A stretch of 64,000 bases of DNA from an uncultured Rivularia sp. (lineage in GTDB: Bacteria > Cyanobacteriota > Cyanobacteriia > Cyanobacteriales > Nostocaceae). Where the stretch lies: positions 2,528,001 through 2,592,000 of the forward strand of contig OY762007.1 of NCBI GenBank assembly GCA_963665115.1. Direction: 5' to 3'. Under the pieces are notes generated by a model. It was not told the DNA's origin. It did not search any database and saw only the letters and a program-made list of their open reading frames with translations. How positions within the stretch are numbered: position 1 is the stretch's first letter; each line of letters begins with the position of its first letter. Of the stretch, positions 2,916 to 63,015 are shown piece by piece. The position numbers and the translations under genes are program-made.

Positions 2916-3644
2916 CTAATCTTCTAGTTCGACAATCACAACAGTAATATTATCGTGTCCGCCTTGATCTTTAGCTCCTTCTATTAGAGAAAGAGCAGTT
3001 TTTTCAAGTACAGTATTTTCTTGCATATAGTAAGCTATCTTTTCATCTGCAAGTTCCTCAGTCAAACCATCGCTGCATAATACAAGGCGATCGCCAGATT
3101 TAACATCAAGCGGTTGCACGTCAACTTCATTTAAGTCGTCACGTCCGAGACAGCGAGATAAAACATGGCGGAAAGGATGATTCCGCGCTTCTTCTATGTT
3201 GATATCGCCCATTTTTAAAGCGCGTGCAACCCAAGTATGATCTTCAGTGATTAATTCCAATAGAGAAGAACGCCAGCGATACAAGCGCGAATCACCAATG
3301 TGAGCAACGTAGGGAGACTCACCGGGGCGAAATACAACTGCGACTACAGTAGTTCCCATATCGGCTCGTTCCGAATTTTTCTGCTGATCTTGCAGAATAG
3401 CTTCGTTGGCTTGCCATAAAGCAGACTGTAACAATTCGTCCGAAGACTTAGAGGCATCCCAATTAGATAACAGGTACTTTTGAATTTCCAATGCAGCAAT
3501 TCGACTTGCCTCCTCACCTCCGGCGTGACCGCCCATGCCGTCGGCTACAATGAAAAATCGACCTTCCGGGTCAATATAGAAAGCATCCTGATTACTAGAA
3601 CGAATAAGTCCCGGATCGCTAAAACCCGTGAATTTAAGTTTCAT
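2916..3644 (-). CDS. pphA: PP2C/PPM-family protein phosphatase (PII phosphatase PphA-like)
   Basis: Motifs NQDA, VADGMGGH, MGTT, HIGDSR, LCSDGL and GGHDNIT. It lies downstream of an ABC1 kinase, as in the Synechocystis sll1769-1771 cluster. Confidence 0.85.
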   Translation of the reverse strand: MKLKFTGFSDPGLIRSSNQDAFYIDPEGRFFIVADGMGGHAGGEEASRIAALEIQKYLLSNWDASKSSDELLQSALWQANEAILQDQQKNSERADMGTTVVAVVFRPGESPYVAHIGDSRLYRWRSSLLELITEDHTWVARALKMGDINIEEARNHPFRHVLSRCLGRDDLNEVDVQPLDVKSGDRLVLCSDGLTEELADEKIAYYMQENTVLEKTALSLIEGAKDQGGHDNITVVIVELED

Positions 3645-5817: not shown

Positions 5818-6338
5818 AATTAGTTTTTTTATGTTTATCCGCAAAAAAATTATAACTTGCCACTATGCTCAACGTGCTTATATAACGCCAGATTTGCTTG
5901 ATATTATTTTTGAGTTGTTTTAGAAGCAGAGCAATCAATATTACCGTAAATCTTTGCAATGTGCAGCTTTGAGTAGATTACAGCCTCACATTCACAGCTA
6001 ACCTATGATTTTGTATAAATGATTATCACCCACGATTTTGAAAATATATTCCTAAAAATATATTCTATTTTATGTCATCAAAATCACACAAATTAAGAAA
6101 TAATTAAGAAATTAGCTTTGTTAAAAAAGCGGGTTTCTAAGTACATCCATTTTTTACAGAACACATCGAATTTCGATGTTAAGCGTGGATTTTGCCTAAA
6201 GGTAAGTTTGCCGTGATTCGTGCAGCTAATTTTATAACCCGTTGTTAAGCCCGTATTAATAAATATTTAATACTTATATATCTTGAGCCAGAAACATACA
6301 AGAGAGTAATTACCTTAGCTAATGTTAAGTTAATTGAA

Positions 6339-42986: not shown

Positions 42987-43055
42987 AGTGAATATAATTA
43001 ACTTTGTTAAGCATATCAAATTATAGGAGAGGGTTAAAACCCTTACTACAAGCTT

Positions 43056-44523
43056 ATGAATGATTTAGTATTCAAACCCGCACATCAACTTGCTCGAATG
43101 ATAAAGGAGCATCAGGTTTCTGCGGTTGAGGTATTGGAAGCACATTTAAATCAAATTTCTCTGCATAATTCTAAGCTGAATGCAATTTGCACTTTTAATA
43201 AAAACGCTCTTGAAACTGCGAAACAAGCCGACGAAGCTTTAGCAAATGGTGAGAATTGGGGAATGCTTCACGGCGTGCCGATAACAATTAAAGATACTTT
43301 TGAAACTGCTGGGCTGCTTACTACTGCGGGTTACGCGCCATTAAAAGACTATATTCCTACAGAAGATGCAACTGCTGTGGCACGTCTTCGCAAAGCTGGA
43401 GCAATTATTATCGGCAAAACTACTCCGTCTCAACTAGCTGGTGATTATCAGGGAATTAATGATATATTTCCTCGTGTAAATAATCCTTGGAATCTGGAAT
43501 ACACGCCAGGTGGTAGTACTAGCGGGGGAGCAGCAGCGGTTTCGGCAGGGTTTTCATCTTTAGAATTAGCTTCTGATATTGGTGGTTTCGATTCGTCATC
43601 CGGCTCACTTTTGCAGATTATATGGACTCAAGCCGACAGATAGAAGAGTTCCGACTACCGGGCATATTGGCGATACTACGAATATGGATTCTCGCTGTAT
43701 TCGGCAAATGCTTACTGTCGGTGGATTGGCGCGTTCTATTGAAGATTTGAGCTTGTGTATAAAAATAATCGCTGGTGCAGATAATCGTCAACCTAATATT
43801 CCTCCCGTACCTTTGGATGAAGTTGAGGAGAAAAGTTTAGAGAATCTAAAAATTGCTTGGATTGATGAATTACCTTTATATCCTGTTGCTAAAGAAATTA
43901 AATCTGCAATGCAAGCGGTGAGAAAAAAGCTTGCGGATGCTCGGATTAATGTTGAAAGTTGGATACCAAAATACGATTTTGCTGCTGCATGGGAGGTTTT
44001 TTATGCTGTGGGTACCTATAACCTGATGTATACTCAACCCACGGATTTGAAAAACCTTAGTTTTATGTGGAAGGAAGCGACACAAGGAGATAAATCATTA
44101 CGGAAATTAAGTAAAATCCCTAATGTAGTACTACCAATATTTATAAAAAAATCCTTGAAAGGTTATTTTGCAGCTTTAACACAAAGAGATAATTTGATTG
44201 CTCAAATGGATCGAGAATTAGAGCAGTGGGATGTATGGTTGTGCCCTGTTGCGATGACAGCTGCATTTACTCATAGAGATAAAGGTGCAGCAGTTGAAAT
44301 TGATGGTAGAAAAGTTCCTTATCAGATGGCGAATGGTGCTTATGTAGTTCCTTTTAATCTTACCGGACATCCGGTTGTAGTGATTCCGATTGGTTTTACG
44401 AAGGATGGATTACCGATTGGGATGCAAATTGTTGGTAAAAGATGGAAGGAGATGGAATTATTGAGTATTGCTGGGAAGTTGGATGAAATTATCGGGGGTT
44501 TTAAACATCCGTCTCTATATTAA
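43056..44523 (+). CDS. Amidase-signature family enzyme; frameshift at about 43587
   Basis: HGVPITIKD and PGGSTSGG. Removing one T of TTT at 43586-43588 restores DIGGSIRHPAHF. Confidence 0.88.
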
Positions 44524-44656
44524 TATCAAATACAACAGTCACTAAATAATCTCTCTGTTCTATTCCTCTGCGTCTCTGCGGTTTTTTTCTCAGTAATCTT
44601 CTTTCTTCTTGGAAGTAATAAGAGAGGGCTGAAGCCCTTACTACGAGCCTTTAATT

Positions 44657-46147
44657 ATGAATGATTTAGTATTTACACCCGCACATCAACTTGCTCGAAT
44701 GATAAAGGAACGATCTGTTTCTGCGGTTGAGGTATTGGAAGCACATTTAAATCAAATTTCTCAACATAACTCTAAATTAAATGCAATTTGTACTTTAAAT
44801 CAAAACGCTCTTGAAACTGCAAAACAAGCCGATGAAGCGTTAGCCTCATGTGAAAATTGGGGATTGCTTCACGGAGTACCGATAACAATTAAAGATATTT
44901 TTGAAACTGAAGAAGTACGTACAACGGCAGGATATAAACCGCTCAAAGATTACATTCCGACTCGTGATGCTACGGTAGTGGCACGTTTGCGTGGTGCGGG
45001 AGCAATTATTTTAGGTAAAAGCAATACTGCCGAACTTGCGGGGGAATATCAAAGCGTTAACGATCTTTTTCCTCCGGTTAATAATCCTTGGAATCTAGAT
45101 TGTACTGCTGGCGGTAGTTCTGGGGGAAGTGCGGCGACTGTTGCGGCTGGTTTTTCGCCGTTAGATATAGGAAATGATGTTTCTGGTTCGATTCGTCAAC
45201 CCGCCCATTTTTGTGGTGTTTATGGACTAAAAACAACCGATAGAAGAGTATCTTCAGCCGGACAAATACCGGAAGTTCCGGGACAGCCAAAGTGCATTCG
45301 TCAAATGCAAACGATCGGTCCTTTGGCGCGTTGTATTGAAGATTTACGGTTATCTTTTACACTAATTGCGGGTGCGGATATTCGACAGCCAGATATTGCG
45401 CCGGTTCCCTTTGATACGATATCTGGTAAATCTTTGCAAGATTTGCGGGTGGCTTGGATGGATGGTTGGGATAAGCTCCCCGTTGCTGCGGAAATTAAGT
45501 CTGCAATGCAAGCTGTAGCAAAGGATTTAACTGAAGCTGGTGTAAAGGTGGAAAGTTGGATTCCTCAAATTGATATAGAAGAGATTTTACAGTTGTGCGA
45601 TCGCCTAATTGCCTATAATTTCGTTTATTCCCAACCCGTTGACTTTGCAACTGCTAAAAAAAGGATTCCCATGATATTTCGGGAGATGACGCAGGGGGAT
45701 AAGGAGTTACGAAAAATCAGCAATATGGGAGATTATTTACCTGAGTTGTTAAATCCGACTTTGAAAGGATATTTTACAGCTTTGACGAGAAGGGATAAGT
45801 TCATTTCCCAAATGGATAAAGCAATGGATAATTGGGATGTATGGTTATGTCCGGTTGCAATGACTTGTGCGTTTACGCATCGTCCTATGGGTACATTTAT
45901 AGATGTAGATGGTAGAAAAGTACCTTATTTATTAGTAAATGGTGCTTATACTTCATTGTTTAATCTTACAGGAAATCCGGTTGTGGTGATTCCTATTGGT
46001 TTTACGAAGGATGGATTACCGATTGGAATGCAAATTGTTGGTAAGCGATGGAAGGAAATGGAATTGTTGAGTATTGCCCAGAAGTTGGATGAAATTGTTG
46101 GGGGTTTTCGGAATCCAGATCGTTTCTTGTTACAAAGCACAGTTTAG
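44657..46147 (+). CDS. Amidase-signature family enzyme
   Basis: HGVPITIKD, GGSSGGS, DVSGSIRQPAHFCG and GLPIGMQIVG. Confidence 0.93.
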   Translation: MNDLVFTPAHQLARMIKERSVSAVEVLEAHLNQISQHNSKLNAICTLNQNALETAKQADEALASCENWGLLHGVPITIKDIFETEEVRTTAGYKPLKDYIPTRDATVVARLRGAGAIILGKSNTAELAGEYQSVNDLFPPVNNPWNLDCTAGGSSGGSAATVAAGFSPLDIGNDVSGSIRQPAHFCGVYGLKTTDRRVSSAGQIPEVPGQPKCIRQMQTIGPLARCIEDLRLSFTLIAGADIRQPDIAPVPFDTISGKSLQDLRVAWMDGWDKLPVAAEIKSAMQAVAKDLTEAGVKVESWIPQIDIEEILQLCDRLIAYNFVYSQPVDFATAKKRIPMIFREMTQGDKELRKISNMGDYLPELLNPTLKGYFTALTRRDKFISQMDKAMDNWDVWLCPVAMTCAFTHRPMGTFIDVDGRKVPYLLVNGAYTSLFNLTGNPVVVIPIGFTKDGLPIGMQIVGKRWKEMELLSIAQKLDEIVGGFRNPDRFLLQSTV

Positions 46148-50244: not shown

Positions 50245-50904
50245 TTAATCTATATATTCCACTACATCTTCTTTCTCGAAACGAACTTTAGCCATATTTG
50301 CATACTTGTCAGTAGAAAAACGATACCCAGCAGCACAAACTACTACTGTACGATATCCTTTATCTTTTAAGCCCAAAACTTCATCGTATTTAGCAGGAAC
50401 CAAACCTTCCATCGGACAAGTATCGATTTCTAACATTGCCGCAGTAAACATAAAAAACCCTAAAGCAATGTAAACTTGTTTAGCAGACCATGCATCTTTA
50501 TCAAAAACGTCAGAAGGTCTTTTTAGAAAACCTTTTACCATATTAGCAAGACCTTCTAGCTTCTCTACCGGAACATTTCTGACTTCCGACATCCGCTGAA
50601 GATAAGTATCAACATCCTCGCTATTAACATCTTCTTTAATAGTAAAAACTACTAAATGAGAAGCATCTACAACTTGTTTTTGTCCCCAGGAATGTTCTAC
50701 AAGTTGCTGACGAATTTCGGGATTGCGTACCACAAAGAATTTCCAAGGTTGTAGCCCAAAGGATGAAGGTGCAAGTAGCAAACTTTGTTCCAACACTTTC
50801 CAAACGTCTTCTGGAATTTTTTTGCTAGAGTCAAATTCTTTGGTTGCATAACGCCAATGTAGTTGCTGGAGAACTTCTTGAGGTGAAAATGTAGTTGCGT
50901 TCAT
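50245..50904 (-). CDS. Nitroreductase family NAD(P)H-dependent oxidoreductase (NfsB-like)
   Basis: WRYATKEFD, APSSFGLQPW, DTCPMEG and AGYR. Confidence 0.92.
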   Translation of the reverse strand: MNATTFSPQEVLQQLHWRYATKEFDSSKKIPEDVWKVLEQSLLLAPSSFGLQPWKFFVVRNPEIRQQLVEHSWGQKQVVDASHLVVFTIKEDVNSEDVDTYLQRMSEVRNVPVEKLEGLANMVKGFLKRPSDVFDKDAWSAKQVYIALGFFMFTAAMLEIDTCPMEGLVPAKYDEVLGLKDKGYRTVVVCAAGYRFSTDKYANMAKVRFEKEDVVEYID

Positions 50905-51116
50905 GTAAGAGTTATAAAAAACAGCCAGTTCAAAGATAAACGCAATTATAGATAAACGCTAGTTGGCGTTACGCCGAAGGCGTTTAGCTCCGCTAATCGC
51001 TCGTATTCTAAAATACATACTTATGGAAAATATGCAAGTGGCAATAGGCGTATTATCTTAGTTTACGCGCAGTAATCGCTGCATGATTCGGCGGTAGATT
51101 AAACTCACCATAGCGC

Positions 51117-52106
51117 TCATACATAAGCGATTATATCTTTTAACTTCGCTAAATAAGACGGTATATATTCTAGTGCTGTTTGCATAAAAGCAGATTCTTG
51201 CTCAGATTTACCCGCAAGAAAAAGCGCAATACAAATATATCTGGCTGCCATAAATAATGAAATTTGATTTTCTATTTCAACTGAAAATTTTCTAATAGTT
51301 CTATATCCTTGGAATAAATTTTGTTTAATTTGAGAATATTCCGTTATTCCCCAATAATTCGCTAAAATTACCGCCAAATCGTAAATATAATATCCATAAC
51401 TAGAATCATCGAAATCAATGGGAACTAAAGTATTTTTATGACAAATAACATTCTTTAAATGCAAATCACCGTGAATGATGCCGAAAACATTGGTTTCTTT
51501 TCCAGCTACAGCTTCAAAATCACTTAAGCGTTGATAAACTAATTCAAATAAATTAACTGTTTCTCGATCAAAATATCTGTAACCCAAAGTCGCATATCCA
51601 AAAGCTCCATTTTTCCCAATCAAACCATCAGCATCAAACATTGGACGATGAAAATCAATAGGCTTTTGCCAATCCGCTAATTTATTATGGATATGAGCAA
51701 GTAATTTACCAAGTTTCTCAAATAAGCTTAAATCCTTGACTTGATGTCCGATAACTGGCGAATCAATCCATGAAAGTATTGAAACAGCTTTAGAAATTCC
51801 TGAAGCTTTACCGATAGAAACAAAATTATTGAAATTATTGTAAATCGGTTTTTGATATCGATAATTATTACAACTACTTAGATATTCGATAATTTTCGCT
51901 TCCGATTCTATATCTTGAACCGTATTCTGCAATCCACAATATACCCGGAGTAAAAAGTTACCTTGCTCGCTGGATAATTTAAAAGTTGTATTTTCTAAGT
52001 GTTTGATAAATTCCAGTTTTACTGAATTGAAACTATATTGTTCGATGGCATTCCGTGCGATTTCGGTATTGATAATAATTTGTTCTGTTGATGAATCTTT
52101 TTTCAT
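51117..52106 (-). CDS. APH/type II homoserine kinase-like phosphotransferase
   Basis: ENTTF, IHGDLHLKN and IDFDD...YIYDLA. Confidence 0.85.
   Translation of the reverse strand: MKKDSSTEQIIINTEIARNAIEQYSFNSVKLEFIKHLENTTFKLSSEQGNFLLRVYCGLQNTVQDIESEAKIIEYLSSCNNYRYQKPIYNNFNNFVSIGKASGISKAVSILSWIDSPVIGHQVKDLSLFEKLGKLLAHIHNKLADWQKPIDFHRPMFDADGLIGKNGAFGYATLGYRYFDRETVNLFELVYQRLSDFEAVAGKETNVFGIIHGDLHLKNVICHKNTLVPIDFDDSSYGYYIYDLAVILANYWGITEYSQIKQNLFQGYRTIRKFSVEIENQISLFMAARYICIALFLAGKSEQESAFMQTALEYIPSYLAKLKDIIAYV
52017..52106. repeat. 90-bp direct repeat, copy 1 (first 30 codons of the phosphotransferase)
   Basis: Identical to 54356-54445 apart from one mismatch. Confidence 0.95.
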
Positions 52107-52979
52107 TGTAGCTTTATTAAAAAATCTGCCAGAAAAGTTTTATTTTGGAATGTTGCACGAACAGTATCACCATTATTGTAGTCAATAATAATTTCAAATC
52201 TTTTAAATTCACCAACCGGATTGTCGATATCAACTGATTTTAATCCTGCAAGCGCATCATTAATATTATTAAACTCATAGTTTTGGGCAAATAATGGTGC
52301 TATAATAACTTTTACTATAAATCGTTCAAGGACTGCTTGAAGTTTTTCCATAAAGTTATCTATTTCCTTTTGAGCAATTAACATTATTGCTTGTCGAAGT
52401 ATTTCTTTATCATTACTAGTTAGATTTGTCAGCTTTTGCGAAGCTTTAGAATAGTTTTCGTCAGCAGTATCTTCGTCAAATGCAATATCAAAATCAATAC
52501 TACTAAACGCCTCTACTACATCTTGATATGGTATATAGATAAGCGTAAATCCATTATTTCTTAATTGCTCTAAAGCTGGTTTAGTAAAATCTCCAGCTAA
52601 AACCGCACCGTAGAATGGTGCTGACAAATGGTGAAGTTCAATAATAGGTAAAATAGCACCTTGAATTTCCTGTACTTTATTCTTTGAATGCTTAGTATAT
52701 CTACGCCATGCAGACTCTATAAATGCAATTGGTGTACCAAGTTTGCTATCTGTACCATTCACTTCAATTACAAAATCTAGATCGTGTTTATTTCCGTACT
52801 TATCTATCCAAGTTACTTTTTTGCCACTTCTTGCTGCACGAAAACGTTGCGAATCAAGATAATAGTTTTGAGCTTGAGTAAATTCTAGTAGTCGAGGCTT
52901 AAGAATATCATCAAGGGACAATCTCTTCTGAAAGTTTACCTAAATCTTGCCCAAATTTATGGGATGGTGAACGCGCCAT
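52103..52979 (-). CDS. Putative type II restriction endonuclease; frameshift at about 52916
   Basis: ATG 52979 gives MARSPSHKFGQDLGKLSEEIV, joining LDDILKP after removing one base of GGG at 52915-52917. PD-(D/E)XK-like HDLDFVIE...FIESAWRRYTKHSKNK; directly downstream of the MTase. Confidence 0.7.
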
Positions 52980-52995
52980 AGTTTTATGATTATTT

Positions 52996-54285
52996 TTATC
53001 TTATCCAAAGTCTTCCTTCCTGTAATGGAATATTATGCTTTCTATTTTTCCATTTGATATTGCGTTTCCTAATCTGCTCGAAACTCCAGGAATTAAAACC
53101 TGCTGATAATGCTAATTCACCAAGCCATTTTTGAACGGGAACATATATTCCGTAAGGTGCTGAATCTCCTACTACAAAACATATATTACAGTTATTTGTT
53201 GTTACTCTACGTAATGCATGAAAAACCTTAGCCATATCAATAAAGTAAGCAGCTATCATTGTATGATAAGCTTTATTTCCTCCTTTAGTCTTTCTAATTT
53301 CTTTTAATTGTCTACAGACAGGAGTTAATTCATCGATAATGACTTTAATTATAGGTTCTTCTATCAAAATATCTAAGTCAAACTTTTCTTTAGAAGCGTG
53401 TTGAGAATTTGAACAAATCAGATATTTTCGTACAGCTTCATGTAAATCTCCCCAAGAATTTACTTCACCCCAAAAAGTCATTTCAAGTCGCGTCGCATCA
53501 GCGTAATCATAGTTATTTGCGTAAGGTGGAGAAGTAATAATTAGATCGATAGATTTATCAGGAATATTTTTTAATAATCTAGCATCATCTTGGATAAGAT
53601 TAGCTTGAGATTTTGTTAGACTTTGCATATACTGCATATCTGATTGTATTAATGCAGCTTGATTATCTAAAGCGATAAATGGCTCGCAAGTTTTAGCTTT
53701 GCGTTTATTAGGAAGAACATATTGCCATTGTGCTGTACCTACATAGCTGGATAATCTCAAAATTCCACAGATAGTTAAAAAGGTAAGAGATTGGATATCT
53801 TCTGATAAATTGGGTGCTATTTCATCATAAGCTTGTCTAATTTTAAATAAACTTTTTAACGTATCTTCTGTATAACATTTTGTTAGTAAAGTTGGAATAT
53901 TTTCTGGAAATTTCACTTTAAGATTATTTGCACGATTCTTAATATTATCGATCGCTGCTACAAATTGATCCAAATTAGCAATCCATGCCAGTTTTCCTTT
54001 TGCAATTCTATACACAAACGGATGTGCTTCAATTCCATATGAATTTATAGCTAATTTATCGGCAACAATACAAACAGTACCAGAGCCAAGAAATGGATCG
54101 AGAATGTTTTTAGGCTGTAACTCTTTGATAACTTCTTCCGTCCAATTTGCTGAAAATCCCGCAGAATAACGAAACCAGCGATGGACAGGTAGCTTCATAT
54201 TATCACTAAAAGTTCCAGTTTTTTCTGCAATCAAAGTAGATTGAGGTGAGTAATCAAAAAGCGAAAGTTGTAGGGGCTGAGTCAT
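52996..54285 (-). CDS. Amino-DNA methyltransferase (probably N4-cytosine, alpha order)
   Basis: Motif I LDPFLGSGT at the N-terminus, motif IV ITSPPY downstream; also HRWFRYSAGFS and VVGDS. Confidence 0.9.
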   Translation of the reverse strand: MTQPLQLSLFDYSPQSTLIAEKTGTFSDNMKLPVHRWFRYSAGFSANWTEEVIKELQPKNILDPFLGSGTVCIVADKLAINSYGIEAHPFVYRIAKGKLAWIANLDQFVAAIDNIKNRANNLKVKFPENIPTLLTKCYTEDTLKSLFKIRQAYDEIAPNLSEDIQSLTFLTICGILRLSSYVGTAQWQYVLPNKRKAKTCEPFIALDNQAALIQSDMQYMQSLTKSQANLIQDDARLLKNIPDKSIDLIITSPPYANNYDYADATRLEMTFWGEVNSWGDLHEAVRKYLICSNSQHASKEKFDLDILIEEPIIKVIIDELTPVCRQLKEIRKTKGGNKAYHTMIAAYFIDMAKVFHALRRVTTNNCNICFVVGDSAPYGIYVPVQKWLGELALSAGFNSWSFEQIRKRNIKWKNRKHNIPLQEGRLWIR

Positions 54286-54352
54286 TTTAGTATTTTACTT
54301 ATATATTGCATAATTTTTCTTTCACTCTATTTCTGTTGCTAAAAACTTTGTA

Positions 54353-54445
54353 CTATTTTACTGAATTGAAACTATATTGTTCGATGGCATTCCGTGCGAT
54401 TTCGGTATTGATAATAATTTGTTCTGTTGATAAATCTTTTTTCAT
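54353..54445 (-). pseudogene. 90-bp direct repeat copy 2: truncated 5' end of the phosphotransferase
   Basis: Encodes MKKDLSTEQIIINTEIARNAIEQYSFNSVK followed immediately by TAG. Confidence 0.85.
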
Positions 54446-54686
54446 ATGCTGTGAAAAATTAATTTTAATACCATAAATGGTCAATATTTTGCTCTAACTA
54501 TAGTCTTGTATTCATATTTTTGCTGGTTTGATTTATCTATATTAATCTAAACTTATTCGTAGAGTATTTAAATATAAGATTTGCTAATATTTAGCTTTAC
54601 AAATTGACATTTTACGAATTGAACATTTCAGGTCATGATAATAGGTAATAACACCACCGCACATAATATATTTTTGGATTAAACTA

Positions 54687-56420
54687 ATGGTTCAACTCAC
54701 ACAGTCAACTCAAGCTACAACTAACCCCGGACGTTTAACAGTTGAAACTGTAGAAATTGCTCCTGAAACTACTGCTATTCGCTGTCTTGATTGGGACAGA
54801 GACCGTTTTGATATCGAGTTTGGTTTGCAGAATGGAACAACTTATAATTCTTTCTTAATTCAAGGAGAAAAAATTGCTTTAGTTGATACTTCTCACCGCA
54901 AGTTTGAGGAGTTATATATGGACATAATTACAGGTTTAATTGACGTAAGTAAGATAGACTATTTGATTATTAGCCACACCGAACCAGACCATAGTGGCTT
55001 GGTTAAAAATATTTTAGAATTAGCTCCTGGTATTACAGTTGTTGGTGCTAAAGTAGCGATTCAATTCTTAGAAAATATGGTTCACCAGCCTTTTGAATCA
55101 ATGGTGGTGAAAAGCGGACAGAAGCTAGATTTGGGCAACGGACACGAGTTAGAATTTGTTTCTGCTCCGAACTTACATTGGCCCGATACAATCTTCACTT
55201 ACGACCATAAAACAAATACTCTTTATACCTGTGATGTATTTGGAATGCATTACTGCGATGACCGCACTTACGATGAAAATTTCACCTCAATAGAAGATGA
55301 TTTCAAATATTACTATGACTGTCTGATGGGGCCAAATGCCCGTTCTGTATTATCAGCTTTAAAGCGGATTAATAAATTAGAAATTGGAAAGGTTGCAACG
55401 GGACACGGACCTTTATTACAGCACCATATTTCGGAATGGATTGGACGCTATCAAGATTGGAGTTCGGAACAAGCTAAAAAAGAAAAATTAGTAGCTTTAT
55501 TTTACGTTGAAGATTACGGCTATAGCGAAGAATTAGTTAGAGCCGTAGCATATGGAAGCAATAGAACAGATGTAGCGGTAGAATTAGTAGATCTCAACGA
55601 TACCGAGCTAACTGAAGTCCGAGAAATAGTTTCCCAAGCTGCTGGTTTAGTAATTGGAATGCCTCCACAATCTAATAATGTTGCTCAAGCTGCTTTAAAT
55701 ACTATCTTGGCAGCCGTTCACAATAAGCAAGCAATTGGCTTATTAGAGTCGGGAGGAGGAGAAGACGAACCGATTTATCCCTTACGCAATAAGTTTCAAG
55801 ATTTGGGATTAACCGAAGCCTTTTCTCCAATATTAGTTAAGGAAACTCCCAGCAAAGCTATAGAACAACTTTGCGATGAAGCAGGAACCGATTTAGGACA
55901 ATGGTTGAATCGCGATCGCACCATAAAACAAATCAAAGCCATTGATAACGAGTTAGAAAAATCTTTGGGAAGGATTAGCACCGGGCTTTATATTATCACC
56001 GCCAAAAAAGGAGAAGTTGAAAGCGCAATGCTGGCTTCCTGGGTGACACAAGCAAGCGTTAATCCATTAGGAGTTGCGATCGCAGTTGCCAAAGACAGAG
56101 CAATCGAATCCTTAATGCACGTCGGCGATCGCTTTGTTTTAAACGTTTTAGAGGAAGGCAAATATCAAGGATTAATGAAACATTTCCTCAAGCGTTTTGC
56201 TCCCGGTGCAGATAGATTTGCAGGAGTTAAAACATATCCTGCTGCCACCAACGAATCTCCGATTTTAGCCGAAGCTCTCGCTTACATGGAATGTGAAATT
56301 ACAACCCGTATGGATTGCGGAGATCACTGGGTAATTTACAGCACAGTCCACACCGGAAGAGTTGCCCAAGTAAACGCCTTAACCGCCGTGCATCACCGCA
56401 AAATGGGCAATCATTATTAA
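54687..56420 (+). CDS. flv4: Flavodiiron protein Flv4
   Basis: Canonical HTEPDH diiron motif, LHWPD, flavodoxin and flavin-reductase domains; first gene of a flv-PsiE-flv triad. Confidence 0.85.
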   Translation: MVQLTQSTQATTNPGRLTVETVEIAPETTAIRCLDWDRDRFDIEFGLQNGTTYNSFLIQGEKIALVDTSHRKFEELYMDIITGLIDVSKIDYLIISHTEPDHSGLVKNILELAPGITVVGAKVAIQFLENMVHQPFESMVVKSGQKLDLGNGHELEFVSAPNLHWPDTIFTYDHKTNTLYTCDVFGMHYCDDRTYDENFTSIEDDFKYYYDCLMGPNARSVLSALKRINKLEIGKVATGHGPLLQHHISEWIGRYQDWSSEQAKKEKLVALFYVEDYGYSEELVRAVAYGSNRTDVAVELVDLNDTELTEVREIVSQAAGLVIGMPPQSNNVAQAALNTILAAVHNKQAIGLLESGGGEDEPIYPLRNKFQDLGLTEAFSPILVKETPSKAIEQLCDEAGTDLGQWLNRDRTIKQIKAIDNELEKSLGRISTGLYIITAKKGEVESAMLASWVTQASVNPLGVAIAVAKDRAIESLMHVGDRFVLNVLEEGKYQGLMKHFLKRFAPGADRFAGVKTYPAATNESPILAEALAYMECEITTRMDCGDHWVIYSTVHTGRVAQVNALTAVHHRKMGNHY

Positions 56421-56609
56421 ACAGTGAACAGTTAACAGTTAACAGTGAACAGTGAACAGTTAACAGTGAACAGTTAGGAGTTAGGAGTTAGGAGTAGTTA
56501 TTTCTCCTTGTCTCCCCCTCTCCCCCTCTACCCCCTCTACCCCCTCTTCCCCCTCTTCCCAATCTCCCCATCTTCCCCCTATGCATAAATCTGCGAAACT
56601 ATACCAACC

Positions 56610-57092
56610 ATGTATATGATCAATCGAGAGCGCGTTGTCAAAAGTTTAGAATTTATCCAAGACGCAATTGTAATTTGCCTGTGTATAGGTTTATTTAGCT
56701 TCATGGTGCTTGAAGTGAGAGATATGTTTCTCTCTTTGCTTCCACCTTTAGAGTCTCAAGCTGTTACTGCCGATATTCTGTTTTTGCTGATTTTAGTTGA
56801 GTTATTTAGGCTACTGATAATTTATTTGCAGGAACATCGAGTATCAATTGGGGTAGCTGTTGAAGTTTCTATAGTTTCCGCATTGCGAGAAATTATCGTT
56901 CAGGGTGTACTAGAACTAAGTTGGACTCAAGTTTTAGCAACTTGTGGCTTTTTATTAGTTCTAGGAATACTATTAGTTCTCCGAGTTTGGCTACCCCCTA
57001 CCTTTGATGGTATCGATCCCGAACAAGCAATAACTGAACGCTATAAGAATCGACAAGTTAAATCGGAATTAGTAGAAACTAATGGGCGGTAG
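56610..57092 (+). CDS. Sll0218-like PsiE-family membrane protein
   Basis: Four TM segments with LILVELFRLL and VSALREII; located between the two flv genes. Confidence 0.85.
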   Translation: MYMINRERVVKSLEFIQDAIVICLCIGLFSFMVLEVRDMFLSLLPPLESQAVTADILFLLILVELFRLLIIYLQEHRVSIGVAVEVSIVSALREIIVQGVLELSWTQVLATCGFLLVLGILLVLRVWLPPTFDGIDPEQAITERYKNRQVKSELVETNGR

Positions 57093-57290
57093 GAGTGAGG
57101 AATTAGGGGTAACTAAGGTTAAAGGTTAGGAGTTAGGAGTTAGGAGTTAGGAGTAGTAAGTAGCAAGTAGTAAGTAGTGAGTTAAGAATATATTTCTCCT
57201 TGTCTCCTTGTCTCCCCATCCCCTCTTCCCCCTCTTCCCCCTCTCCCCCCTCTCCAATTACTAAATACCAAATTTAATCCAAAATTGATT

Positions 57291-59025
57291 ATGTCAACTA
57301 CCACAACCACAAACCGTAAAAGAGATGTCCAAGTTGCTGAAATTGGACAAAATACGATGATTTTGCGATCGCGAACTTGGGATCGATTGAAGTTTGAGGT
57401 TGAATATTCCCGTCAAAAGGGAACTACAGCCAATTCTTATCTGATCCAAGCTGATAAAAAAGCTTTAATCGATCCTCCTGGTGAATCTTTTACGGAAATT
57501 TATCTCCAGCAATTAAAGCAGCATCTAGATTTAACTACTTTAGATTACATTATTCTCGGTCATGTTAATCCTAACCGTAGAGCGACTTTGGAAGCATTGC
57601 TACCTCAAGCACCGAACGCTACTTTAATTTGTTCTCGCCCTGCTGCCAATGCCCTCAAAGCGGCTTTTCCTGAGTGGGAATCGCGGATTCAAACCGTGCG
57701 CTCGGAGGATACTTTAGATTTAGGAGGAGGACACAATTTAACATTTGTTACCATACCTACTCCCCGTTGGGCTGATGGGCTTTGTACTTATGACTCTGCG
57801 ACAAATATTCTTTATACAGATAAATTATTTGGCGCTCATATCTGCGAAGATACTTTATCTGATAAAAACTGGAAAAGTTTAGATGCGGAACGTCGTTACT
57901 ATTTTGAATGTCTCCACGCACCCCAAGCCAAACAAGTTGAAGCTATTTTAGAAAAGATTGCGGTTTTCCCTGCAAAAACCTACGCTCCCGGTCATGGTCC
58001 AATTGTTAGTCATAGCCTCAGTAGATTTACTTACGATTACCAGCAATGGTGCCAGAATCAAAAATCTCAAGAATTGAGTGTTGCTTTACTTTATGCTTCC
58101 GCTTACGGAAATACAGCGATTTTAGCCGGGGCGATCGCCAATGGTTTAATAGAGAATGGAGTTAATGTAGAATCGATCAACTGTGAATCGGCAGATACTG
58201 AGGAGATTACCCGGATTGTAGAAGCTTGCGATGGCTTGATTATTGGTTTCACCTACATTAGGTGGGCATGCACCGACTCAAATTCAAACCGCTTTAGGAA
58301 TAATTCTGTCAAAAGCTGCGAAAACTAAATTAGCGGGAGTATTTGGTTCCTATGGTTGGAGTGGGGAAGCAGTTGATTTAATAGAAAACAAATTTAAAGA
58401 TGCCAATTATCGTTTAGGATTTGAATCAATTCGAGTTCGTTTCACTCCTACAGATGAAATTCTGCAACAATGTCAAGAAGCTGGCGCATTATTTGCCGAA
58501 AACTTGAAAAAAGACAAGAAACTGCGTAGCTCCCGTCAAGTTGTCACAGAAACCCATATAGATCGTACCGAGCAAGCAGTAGGGCGGATTATAGGTTCGT
58601 TATCTGTAGTAACGAGTCGCGACGGAGACACTCACAAAGGTGTTTTAACTTCTTGGGTATCTCAAGCCAGCTTTAATCCACCGGGAATAATGATTGCCAT
58701 TGCTGACGAACAAAATGCAGATTTGATATCTAATCTTGACGATAAATTTGTACTAAATATCCTTAAAGAAGGTAGAAATGTCCGCCGATATTTTTCTCGT
58801 CAAAGTACGTTAGGGGATAATCCATTCGTCAATCTTTCCACCAAAACCGCTGACAATGGTTGTCTTGTTCTCACCGAAGCATTATCTTACTTAGAATGCA
58901 CCGTACAAAATAGAATTAAATCTGGTGAAAGATGGTTAATTTATGCCGTAATAGATAACGGTGAAGTCTTAGAAGATGAAGGTTTAACTGCCGTCGAGCA
59001 TCGGAAATCGGGGAGTTATTATTAA
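57291..59025 (+). CDS. flv2: Flavodiiron protein Flv2; frameshift at about 58248
   Basis: Non-canonical HVNPNR site and YASAYGNT. Removing one T of TTT at 58247-58249 restores IIGSPTLGGH. Confidence 0.85.
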
Positions 59026-59074
59026 TTATGTAGAGACGTAGCACTGCTACGTCTTCCGACGTTTGAATTGCTTT

Positions 59075-59330
59075 TCACTTGATAATCCATTTTCGCCAAT
59101 CAACATTACTATCTTCACATGGTTGATATAATTCCGGCTTCCCAGATGCAAGCACTTCGGCGATCGTTTGCATCGATTTAGCTTTACTTGGTATAGAAAA
59201 TTCAGAATTTGGGTTATAGACATCGGGATGATGCCAATTATTTAGTTGAATAATTTGAGCTAATTCAGCCGCATTTAAGCTATACCAACCAACCACTTGT
59301 TCTGTCGTCAAAGCCCAATCTTGATCGTTT
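59075..59330 (-). pseudogene. Internally deleted, 5'-truncated copy of the 62350-63015 gene
   Basis: DWALT.EQVV.WYSLN is fused directly to QIIQLNNWHHPDVYNPNSEFS...VDWRKWIIK. Confidence 0.85.
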
Positions 59331-59341
59331 TACTGAGGAAA

Positions 59342-59416
59342 GTAGTTGATAACGGTAAACTTTTTGAAAACGAAGGTTCAACTGCTGTAGAACATCGTAA
59401 ATCTGGCAGCGATTAA
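59342..59416 (+). pseudogene. Orphan 3' end of an flv2-like gene
   Basis: VVDNGKLFENEGSTAVEHRKSGSD* versus flv2 VIDNGEVLEDEGLTAVEHRKSGSYY*. Confidence 0.8.
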
Positions 59417-59638: not shown

Positions 59639-62134
59639 ATGGCAAAAATTGATTTAGTCTCTGGATTGCTCGGTTTTTTAATCACCTTTGCAGCTTTACC
59701 TGCGACTGCTCAGGTAACATCTGATGGAACGACCAATACAAATATCAACAATAGCAATAGTAACTTTACGATTCTCAACGGCATTCAAAAAGGGAATAAT
59801 TTATTTCATAGCTTCAAAGAATTTTCTATTCCAACAGGTGGTTCGGCAACTTTTAATAATTCTACCGACGTAGTAAATATTATTAACCGAGTCACGGGTG
59901 GAAATATTTCTAATATTGATGGACTAATTAAAGCTAACGGTAGTGCAAATTTATTTTTAATTAATCCTGCGGGAATTGTATTTGGGGAAAATGCAAGGTT
60001 GGATATTGGTGGTTCGTTTTTGGGGACAACTGCTCAGAGTATTTTATTTGAAAATGGATTTGAATTTAGTGCTGTAAATGCACAAACTGAGCCATTGTTA
60101 ACTATAACTATTCCTTTAGGACTACAAATAGGTAGCAATCCAGGAGACATTACTGTTCAAGGAAATGGACATCAGTTAAGCACTGTAAATAGTCTTTCAG
60201 CTTTAGAAACTCGGAATACCAGTTCTGGTTTAAGAGTTAATTCCGGTAATACCCTGGCTTTAGTCGGAGGAAACTTGGTTTTGAACGGTGGTATTGTTAG
60301 CGCTGATGGTGGCAATATTGCACTAGGAGCTGTAGCAAATAGAAATGGTAATCCAGTTCAAGTTAAATTAAATAATGTGGATACATCTTGGACTCTAGAT
60401 TATTTACAAGTAGAGGAATTTAAAGATATTAACCTTACAAAACGTGCCTTAGTAGATGCAAGTGGTGTAAGTAAGGGTTCAATTCACATTCAAGGAGAAA
60501 CTGTTTCTCTCAAACAAGCTTCCCTTATTGCTTTAGAAAATAGAGGAGAGCAAACAGGGGGAGACATTCAAATACAGGCTACCAAATTACTGGAATTCGC
60601 AGATTCTCCTGTTGCAAATGCTTTAGACGGTTTGATGAACGGCGTATTTAATGATACTGCAAGCAATGCTACAGGGGGAGATATCATCATCTCGACAAGC
60701 GAAATATTAATGCAAAATGGAGGTGGTTTAATAGCCAACCGCACATTCACAGAAGGTGCTGGAGGTAGCATTAATGTAGATAGTAAAGACATCACTATAC
60801 TTGGTTCAAGTAGTATGTATGGCGGTACAATCATTACGCGAACATTAGGAGCTGGTAATTCAGGAAATGTTTCCATAAATACGGAACGATTAAAAATACT
60901 TAATCAAGGAAGTATTGCTTCTAGTTCCAGGTCTCCAGGTTCAGCAGGCAACCTTACTATTAATGCTGAAGAAAAAATAGAATTTACTGCTCCCCAATCC
61001 GCTGGTAGGAGTAGTTCAGGTATTAGCTTTTCAGCATTGAGCGAATCAGGTAATGCTGGGAATATAGTTGTTAATACAGGTAAATTAGTTCTACGCGATG
61101 GTATGTTAATTAGTTCTTCTACCTTTGGTAAGGGTAATTCAGGTTCAATTGTCATTAACGCTTCGGAATCTTTTGAAATAGGGGGAACGCGAACCATTAA
61201 TAATCGAGATGGGACTACTACTACCGAAGGTAGTATTGTTCGTTCTGCTGCTATTTTGCTCAATCCATTCGCAAGACGGTTGTATAATTTACCGGATGTA
61301 TTAGGGGGAGATGGAGGCAATATTACAATAAATACACCCCGTCTGAATTTAGAAGACTTGGGTTTAATTACGGTACGCAATGATGGTACTGGGGATGCTG
61401 GCAACATAATTATTAATGCTGAGTCGATTTTTCTCAACAAACAAGGGGAAATTACTGCAAATACATCATCAGGAGAAGGTGGAAATATTAACTTGAATTT
61501 AAAATCAGACTTGATACTGCGAAATAACAGCTTAATTAGTACGGAAGCATTAAGTACGGGTGATGGGGGTAATATCACGATTAATTCTCCTGCAATAGTC
61601 GGAGTAGAAAATAGCGATATTGTTGCCAATGCTTTTGAAGGAAATGGCGGTAAGATTGACATTACAACTCAAGGTATTTTCGGTTTAGAATTTCGCAACG
61701 AACTAACCGATGAAAGCGATATTACTGCGAGTTCTCAATTTGGTATTAACGGTACAGTAGAAATAAATAATTTGAGTATTGATCCCAGTTCTGGTTTAGT
61801 AGAATTACCCGCAAAACTAGCAGATTCATCACAAAAAATCGCTAGTGGATGTTCTAGTAATACCAATAGTACTTTTGTTGCCACCGGAAGGGGTGGAGTA
61901 CCGCAAAACCCCAAGGAACAGATTGATATAAATCCTGCTTGGTCGGATATTCGTGACTTATCAGCATATCGTCAAAAAAGAAATAATAGTAGTGTTAAAA
62001 ATACACAAATATCAAATCAACCAGCTATTGTAGAAGCTACTGGTTTTGTCCGTAATGCTTCAGGAGAAATTGAACTAGTTGCTAAGGAAAATGCACCTTT
62101 AGTAAATAAACTAGTTGCTGATTGTAGTGGCTGA
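59639..62134 (+). CDS. Filamentous haemagglutinin N-terminal domain (TpsA-like) exoprotein
   Basis: Signal peptide, NLFHSF, RVTGG, NLFLINPAG, G-x-G-G-N-I-x-I repeats and C-terminal TGRGGVP.NP. Confidence 0.92.
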   Translation: MAKIDLVSGLLGFLITFAALPATAQVTSDGTTNTNINNSNSNFTILNGIQKGNNLFHSFKEFSIPTGGSATFNNSTDVVNIINRVTGGNISNIDGLIKANGSANLFLINPAGIVFGENARLDIGGSFLGTTAQSILFENGFEFSAVNAQTEPLLTITIPLGLQIGSNPGDITVQGNGHQLSTVNSLSALETRNTSSGLRVNSGNTLALVGGNLVLNGGIVSADGGNIALGAVANRNGNPVQVKLNNVDTSWTLDYLQVEEFKDINLTKRALVDASGVSKGSIHIQGETVSLKQASLIALENRGEQTGGDIQIQATKLLEFADSPVANALDGLMNGVFNDTASNATGGDIIISTSEILMQNGGGLIANRTFTEGAGGSINVDSKDITILGSSSMYGGTIITRTLGAGNSGNVSINTERLKILNQGSIASSSRSPGSAGNLTINAEEKIEFTAPQSAGRSSSGISFSALSESGNAGNIVVNTGKLVLRDGMLISSSTFGKGNSGSIVINASESFEIGGTRTINNRDGTTTTEGSIVRSAAILLNPFARRLYNLPDVLGGDGGNITINTPRLNLEDLGLITVRNDGTGDAGNIIINAESIFLNKQGEITANTSSGEGGNINLNLKSDLILRNNSLISTEALSTGDGGNITINSPAIVGVENSDIVANAFEGNGGKIDITTQGIFGLEFRNELTDESDITASSQFGINGTVEINNLSIDPSSGLVELPAKLADSSQKIASGCSSNTNSTFVATGRGGVPQNPKEQIDINPAWSDIRDLSAYRQKRNNSSVKNTQISNQPAIVEATGFVRNASGEIELVAKENAPLVNKLVADCSG

Positions 62135-62273: not shown

Positions 62274-62349
62274 GATACAGGTTAAAAAGGTGATAAATTG
62301 AGAAAGTATGAATCCAGAAAATACAGACAAATTAATATCTCAATAATTT

Positions 62350-63015
62350 TCACTTGATAATCCATTTTCGCCAATCAACATTACTATCTTCACATGGTTG
62401 ATATAATTCCGGTTTACCAGATGCAAGCACCTCAGCAATCGCTTGCATAGATTTAATTCGACTCGGCAGAGAAAATTCCGAATTAGGGTTATAAACGTCG
62501 GGATGATGCCAATTATCAAGTTGAATAATTTGACCTAATACAGCCGGTACTATTTCTCTTAATTCTGTTTCAGGTGCTAAAATTTTCTCCCGATATCTAT
62601 CCGTAAGATAAACCATCAAGTCAAAATCAATATAATCCGACAGATGAGGATTTCTGTCAATTTCACTTGAATTAATCATAAATTGTTCTTCCCGAATCGT
62701 TACTGATATAGATTCGGGAATTTCATCATCTTCTTCTAATTCATTCAATGGATATTTAACCGGATAATAAGTAACAAAAGGTTCGTTTATCAAAATACGG
62801 CTTCCAAATGCAGAAATCATCAGCACTGGTTCAACGCCATTTAAACTATACCAACTAACAACTTGTTCTATAGTCAAAGCCCAATCTTCATCGTTTCTGA
62901 ATCCGGTTAGACGAGCAGTGACCATATCGTAATTCATATTATCAAAACCAGGAAAATCCAATTTCCCTGCTGCTTTGTCCAGACAGTTGAGAATATTATC
63001 TGTAGTAATTGTCAT
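62350..63015 (-). CDS. Acidic hypothetical protein (DUF7003-like)
   Basis: FPGFDN, ARLTGFR...WALTIE, LDNWHHPD and NVDWRKW. Confidence 0.65.
   Translation of the reverse strand: MTITTDNILNCLDKAAGKLDFPGFDNMNYDMVTARLTGFRNDEDWALTIEQVVSWYSLNGVEPVLMISAFGSRILINEPFVTYYPVKYPLNELEEDDEIPESISVTIREEQFMINSSEIDRNPHLSDYIDFDLMVYLTDRYREKILAPETELREIVPAVLGQIIQLDNWHHPDVYNPNSEFSLPSRIKSMQAIAEVLASGKPELYQPCEDSNVDWRKWIIK

Follow-up and report, generated by a model that had tools for sequence, protein, structure and literature searches.

The window analysed here is a 64,000-nucleotide stretch of the genome of an uncultured Rivularia sp. (GenBank assembly GCA_963665115.1, contig OY762007.1, positions 2,528,001 to 2,592,000), and our subject is a Type II restriction-modification (RM) cassette that lies in it between two 90-bp direct repeats. 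Coordinates are window positions; this 8.69-Mb genome is called G000, and other G numbers denote genus relatives, L numbers fetched loci and X numbers read runs. The repeats belong to an APH-family phosphotransferase gene, the target gene (51117..52106, minus strand; 329 aa, 31% GC, Pfam PF01636), and on the minus strand both start at its ATG. The upstream copy, R1 (54356..54445, minus strand), holds codons 1-30 and then runs into TAG at 54353-54355, leaving a 30-codon upstream open reading frame (ORF). The downstream copy, R2 (52017..52106, minus strand), opens the intact phosphotransferase, and its ATG overlaps the TGA of the restriction endonuclease (REase) gene, so that ATGA gives the REase its stop. 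The two 90-bp copies differ at one position (repeat position 14, T/C) and are spaced 2339 bp apart. Between them, also on the minus strand, lie a 70-bp spacer of what we call type A (54286..54355), which leads from R1 to the methyltransferase start, an intact 429-aa DNA methyltransferase (MTase) gene (52996..54285; PADLOC MTase_II PDLC03306, E=1e-128; PF01555), and a Type II REase gene homologous to R.PamI (52103..52979; PADLOC REase_II, E=4e-57) that carries a +1 frameshift. Beyond R1, an intergenic region (54446..54686) is shared with a divergent flavodiiron protein gene (flv; 54687..56420, plus strand); it adjoins the single repeat in alleles that are empty of the cassette and is the presumed promoter. 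A promoter scan stayed at chance level (20 vs 19.4), and it is plausible from the layout that the cassette is expressed from the host gene's upstream region by promoter capture. A reading made earlier from the letters of the window (the sequence-only reading) had described the repeats, their correspondence to the first 30 phosphotransferase codons, the TAG and the ATGA overlap, and all of this held; it had also listed an MTase and a REase gene, of which the first is indeed intact, but it missed the frameshift in the second.

The repeats were also confirmed by read depth in three runs, X1-X3, which come from one study and of which X1 may be the source of the window. In the assembled reads a 76-bp repeat node stood at 466x in X1, 169x in X2 and 481x in X3, roughly double the flanks (226-232x, 73-80x and 287-332x, respectively), and both junction contigs were present in each run. 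The cassette itself stood at 231x in X1, level with its flanks, and the amplification between repeats that the sequence-only reading had envisaged was not seen. The ratio of cassette to flank depth was ~1.0 in X1, 0.97 in X2 and 0.8 in X3, contigs being blind to rare excision. Excision through the repeats, which had likewise been suggested, is plausible: a fourth run, X4, is 98.5-99% identical to G000 across most of the region and has an empty site with one repeat copy, assembled as a single 4947-bp contig at 104x. Two 151-bp REase fragments in X4, at 4x, are too shallow for interpretation.

No third copy of the repeat was found in the 8.69-Mb genome (blastn, query 50900-54700). As the sequence-only reading had stated, there is no integrase or transposase, at least among 17 neighbouring or internal proteins between 43.6 and 63.9 kb (Pfam scan; three gave no match at all), and no terminal inverted repeat occurs among the 25 longest repeats listed; on these grounds we rejected a site-specific integrative element or transposon. 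We also rejected the idea that the lack of HIP1 sites and a low GC content mark the cassette as a recent foreign arrival. The G000 genome is rich in HIP1 and the 2429-bp cassette has no site, as had been noted, but 0.73 are expected (P(0)=0.48), so the absence is uninformative; the target gene has 31% GC against 33% for the cassette. The nearest named homologues are cyanobacterial. Two-copy direct repeats of at least 60 bp that lie 0.5-10 kb apart number 117 in the G000 genome, 100 of them 60-200 bp long; a share of the 117 may be inserts with long duplications, and the others tandem paralogues.

We found cassette sequence in 8/27 genus genomes (G000, G002, G003, G005, G013, G018, G021 and, as a remnant, G004), every time at the same site, and an empty site with one repeat copy in 14/27. 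The G018 assembly holds contigs of both filled and empty alleles; in G010, G015, G022 and G023 the stretch fetched contains no phosphotransferase or only a remnant of it, and the classification covers all of the 27 except G042. The one-copy empty alleles that had been expected in relatives thus exist in 14 genomes, as the second allele of G018 and in X4, and they support an insertion with long target duplication that brought no mobility gene, as first proposed. That the host gene is kept intact is true of G000, but the phosphotransferase is full-length in only 3/7 filled alleles with a visible downstream side, and in 6/13 translated empty alleles (G041 was left out of the translated set and the reading frame of G020 is ambiguous); some of these truncations may be assembly errors.

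The junctions vary across the genus. The type A spacer is common to G000, G018 (94%) and G002 (90%), and G005, G013, G021 and G004 have a different one that shares only its last ~16 nt with type A. R1 ends near position 90 in G000, G018, G005 and G003, and is absent from G013 and G021, where the cassette is present. These two are, literally, what the sequence-only reading had named as evidence against itself, relatives with RM genes here and no duplication; they look like secondary deletions, since R1 persists beside the same spacer in G005. An open MTase is found in 6/6 full copies. The REase is open in four relatives, has a ~607-bp deletion in G003 and is gone in G004. Three fusions or overlaps were seen in passing: in G003 (L024:2701-2776) a shortened upstream copy is joined in frame to the MTase, adding 25 codons; in G005 (L021:4591-4734) the ORF opened by the upstream copy ends overlapping the MTase start, a possible translational coupling; and a downstream remnant in G005 is joined in frame to the next ORF.

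The duplication had been read as recent. Among cassette alleles, however, the synonymous divergence (dS) of MTase and REase is 0.13-0.50, as deep as that of rpoB among the same genomes (up to 0.57), which indicates that the insertion is old. Values of dN/dS (nonsynonymous over synonymous divergence) of 0.12-0.24, and 0.16-0.22 for the MTase, place both genes under purifying selection. By length, G002, G004 and G028 are out of some trees or dS tables, and G005 is out of the MTase dS table (3-nt indel). For two pairs of genomes the cassette genes are less divergent than rpoB: between G000 and G018 dS is 0.17-0.20 for the RM genes vs 0.51 for rpoB, and between G013 and G021 it is 0.155 for the MTase vs 0.51 for rpoB. 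In the rpoB tree G000 is sister to G016 (100/99) and groups with G016, G007, G003 and G001, but it joins G018 in the trees of flv, MTase and REase. By the approximately unbiased (AU) test, flv rejects G000+G016 (p=2e-37) and the MTase rejects G000+G013+G003 (p=2e-85). On the opposite side of the cassette, a nitroreductase gene (50245..50904, minus strand) groups with G007/G003. Per 500 bp, identity to G018 reaches 90-98% between roughly R2 and 59.3 kb, against 82-91% outside, outlining a G018-like recombination tract at approximately 52000..59300 whose left edge lies about at R2; six G018 segments inside it are 91.8-94.7% identical, vs a background median of 86.6%, and in a 400-kb G018 control 178/400 segments aligned, 13/178 of them at >=92%. 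It is thus likely that a ~7-kb recombination tract related to G018 brought the cassette into G000, and the tree conflict, the dS gap and the local tract together point to horizontal acquisition between species, through homologous recombination at this one site.

Within G000 and G005 the two repeats are nearly or fully identical (1/90 and 0/60 mismatches), while between genomes repeat divergence averages 23%. This suggests that the two copies were likely homogenised later in these two genomes. Other copies resemble those of different genomes: R1 of G003 is 1/46 from the empty copy of G007 and its R2 is 8/90 from the R2 of G013, its closest, and the identical pair of G005 is 3/60 from the empty copy of G001 vs 10/60 from its rpoB sister, G021. 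The repeats are thus probably rewritten by recombination, so that their identity would reflect the last exchange. It does not date the insertion, and near-identical flanking repeats should not be taken as a sign of a recent one. The route would be conversion between R1 and R2, patching by empty alleles, or a new duplication made when the cassette re-enters.

The history that we consider probable is a single ancient entry of the Type II RM cassette, which was later moved between species, and lost, by ordinary homologous recombination. One ancient entry would have made the long duplication, with transcription supplied from the host gene's upstream region, as the layout suggests. Spread would have followed by allelic replacement through conserved flanks, with flv and the nitroreductase gene as homology arms; the tree conflict is observed, and homologous recombination would be the route behind it. 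R1 and R2 would have been rewritten, by exchange either between the two or with the one copy that empty alleles carry, a route that would fit the pattern seen. Precise loss would run through the repeats, as may have happened in the X4 strain, and decay would begin with the REase: G000 has the frameshift, G003 lacks ~607 bp and G004 retains a remnant. Where R1 has been deleted, as in G013 and G021, the cassette would be locked in. The locus gives a time-resolved series, within one genus, of empty, filled, locked, REase-dead and remnant alleles.

Several points weigh against this history. The species tree is rpoB alone. The two spacer types, together with two downstream junctions, would allow two separate entries. 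Comparison of R1 with R2 was possible in only four genomes, and the repeats are not uniform everywhere, with 8/46 mismatches in G003 and 10/90 in G018 (0 in the first 41 nt); if 6.5% divergence is expected, the matches in G000 and G005 have p~0.017 each. The 400-kb control holds one other run of five segments at 92-96% identity to G018, so that such tracts are not confined to RM genes. Finally, G018 cannot polarise the sites that differ in the X4 promoter (four side with G000, two with X4 and three with neither), and loss in X4 is therefore a deduction.

Recurrent re-insertion, in which an old cassette repeatedly re-enters empty alleles and copies the recipient's 90 bp to both sides, is in our judgement unlikely. 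Entry would be homology-guided, for example using two chromosome copies, and the G000 copy would be a young member of an old cassette lineage. Such a process would account for the single copy of X4, which equals G000 R2 save one site, for a promoter patch in X4 that diverges more than the flanks (nine substitutions in 54539-54634), for the closeness of the G005 pair to the G001 empty copy rather than to its rpoB sister, and for R1 of G018, which equals the empty allele of the same assembly over 54 nt. The last identity is in part imposed by the assembly graph, however, simple gene conversion yields the same pattern, and the copies are unlike in G003 and G018. In addition, X4 has the G018-like flv allele in common with G000 (30 differences in 1947 bp), which most simply arrived with the cassette; the tract is then older than the G000/X4 split, and the empty site of X4 is most simply a loss. 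A broader proposal, which we hold to be doubtful, is that the cassette behaves as an element that is faithful to its site and lacks a recombinase, and that a fill/empty cycle has maintained it for as long as the genus has existed; in this cycle empty alleles would rewrite both repeats, leaving the cassette excisable and re-insertable across species. If this were true, repeat identity could not date long target duplications, some of which would be regenerated at each transfer.

Vertical descent alone since the genus ancestor, with many independent losses, gene conversion within the chromosome and no exchange among species, seems improbable. It would explain why both main rpoB clades contain filled alleles and why RM identity between G000 and G005/G021 (87-89%) equals flank identity, but the AU tests, the dS gaps and the local G018-like tract contradict it. 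A recent one-off insertion de novo in the G000 strain or species, duplicating 90 bp, is more improbable still. Repeat copies that are 89/90 identical and the empty site of the 98.5%-identical strain X4 would suit it, yet G018 and G002 share cassette, site and junction with G000, and cassette sequence, at dS values up to 0.5, is found here in 8/27 genomes; as members of this RM family lie beside a phosphotransferase in 0/81 other loci, it is unlikely that the cassettes reached the same base independently. An assembly artefact, conceivable in that no single record covers the whole stretch and X1 may be source data, has a negligible chance: in three runs the repeat node has about twice the flank depth and both junction contigs are present, and the independent genomes G005 and G003 hold both copies.

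The MTase of the cassette has an N-terminal FxGxG and a central TSPPY motif, an order that we take to be that of an alpha-order m4C (N4-methylcytosine) enzyme, and it is predicted to be an m4C MTase of the N4/N6 type; a PDB sequence search with it gave weak matches only. The REase begins with an ATG at 52979 and its frame ends after 22 codons, the break being one extra base in the GGG run at 52915-52917; a 272-aa ORF from a TTG lacks seven invariant N-terminal positions. The extra base is present in X1 and absent from X2 and X3, where the REase is open. Since these runs are otherwise identical, the frameshift is real and a very recent strain-level mutation, leaving sibling strains one base apart in the REase. 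The G000 strain likely has an active MTase and a dead REase. Prior damage by other REase substitutions is not established: L17S is unseen in 73 homologues, and S occurs at position 43 in 5/73.

Members of the REase family adjoin an MTase in 80/81 other loci, and D66, D68, E88 and K101 are invariant in 73/73 homologues (L070, which has internal stops, was dropped from the alignment). We modelled the intact G013 orthologue in place of the broken G000 protein (pLDDT 90), and its best match was BstEII (Z 9.2, root-mean-square deviation 3.2, 136 aligned), followed by SgrAI (Z 8.0) and BsoBI (Z 7.4), with several restriction enzymes at Z 6-8. As modelled, the REase is of the PD-(D/E)XK restriction-endonuclease fold with conserved catalytic residues.

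The recognition sequence can be approached through PamI of the Paracoccus aminophilus plasmid pAMI7, which is described as having NcoI specificity (PMC3925955). The pAMI7 REase aligned with the 73-sequence profile at an hhalign probability of 99.9%, and the 261 aligned columns, 30% identical, take in the D-x-D...E-S-x-W-R-R-x-x-x-H-S-K stretch. CCATGG is also 50-fold rarer than expected in the G000 genome (16 observed vs 769 expected, observed/expected 0.02). From the homology and this rarity the cassette is predicted to act on CCATGG (NcoI/PamI specificity). The NcoI m4C MTase and REase are presumably ~422 and ~288 aa long, matching the PADLOC profile lengths. Weighing against the predicted specificity, the pAMI7 enzyme is only 30% identical and its partner is annotated 'DNA cytosine methyltransferase', of another family than the SPPY-type MTase of the cassette; CCATGG is only ninth among avoided palindromes, and at least 15/64 six-base palindromes have an observed/expected ratio <=0.05. 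The specificity is a prediction because many other palindromes are equally under-represented. CCATGG is absent from the window and from 26/27 fetched loci, so cutting at the target, as by a homing-type element, gains no support, the specificity itself being predicted. A probable CCATGG barrier would be relevant for the transformation of these cyanobacteria.

Insertion of RM genes with long target duplication is a known phenomenon, of which this locus is a well-documented new example. Furuta et al. (PMC2853133) describe such inserts from pairwise genome comparisons, with the empty allele in relatives and repeats that often cover a translation start or stop, and list a Microcystis case and an insertion-made gene fusion. 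The cassette agrees with their inserts throughout (R and M genes, <20 kb, a duplication >30 bp, an empty allele, no mobility gene and a repeat that is not dispersed). Unlike those pairwise cases, the present site was traced across a genus, bringing in age, interspecies allele exchange, rewritten repeats and several decay routes. In Helicobacter pylori, deletion and re-acquisition are reported for the repeat-flanked Type II systems HpyII/HpyAII (Aras et al. 2001, via PMC5909468), and six repeat-flanked systems have direct repeats of 65-395 bp, with homologous recombination proposed for gain (PMC10423294). As at our locus, a single copy is found there where the RM genes are absent, and repeats are missing in some filled alleles. 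The H. pylori cycle runs within one species, whereas exchange at the present locus is likely between species, and RM family and host differ. In H. pylori the repeats are at most ~5 points more alike within strains than between them; here the corresponding figures are 99-100% vs 77% in two genomes. For HpyAXII (PMC2588503) the MTase is kept while the REase decays, as here, where the MTase is intact in 6/6 full copies and the REase broken in G000 and G003; that paper does not mention repeats, the word being absent from it. Literature searches, which left most subscription journals outside their coverage, found nothing that links RM, direct repeats, gene conversion, homologous recombination and cyanobacteria, and on CCATGG or m4C in cyanobacteria nothing on the present system.

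Long duplication as a trait of this RM family was rejected, a repeat tightly flanking the RM pair in only 3 of the 62 other loci with enough flank (of 81): L057 (35 bp, 97%), L069 (66 bp, 83%, possibly a dispersed repeat) and L088 (1336 bp, the size of an insertion sequence). The L057 repeat, in Nostoc (3427-3461 and 5876-5910), begins at the REase stop and is a candidate second long-duplication insertion. A conserved sequence ~55 nt upstream of the MTase recurs in the unrelated loci L046-L049, L063 and L065, from several other cyanobacterial genera; it is possibly the RM system's own promoter and is not evident in the spacer of the window. At L046:3684-5879, from an Aulosira assembly, MTase and REase form one 731-aa ORF, a natural fusion or an error.

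A second duplication lies ~5 kb from the cassette. Here a TPS-domain gene (59639-62134) stands between two direct copies, 200 bp long and 89% identical (59072-59271 and 62347-62546), of the 3' end of a DUF7003 gene, and G003, G007, G013, G016 and G018 (5/5 examined) have one copy and no insert. That a non-RM gene has a similarly long duplication argues for general recombination as the route, not one driven by restriction. The left copy is 91.5% identical to G018, and the right-hand gene is 84% identical to G018 and 91% to G007; the duplication possibly lies where the imported tract ends. The TPS insert has at its edge a 74-bp stretch that copies the 3' end of a flavodiiron gene at 77% identity (58948-59021 and 59342-59415), and a second flavodiiron gene is present as two overlapping ORFs (57285-58328 and 58243-59025), likely through a frameshift. 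Further away, at 43023-46108, tandem amidase paralogues are 71% identical over 1.5 kb and have an 86-bp exact-seeded stretch in common.

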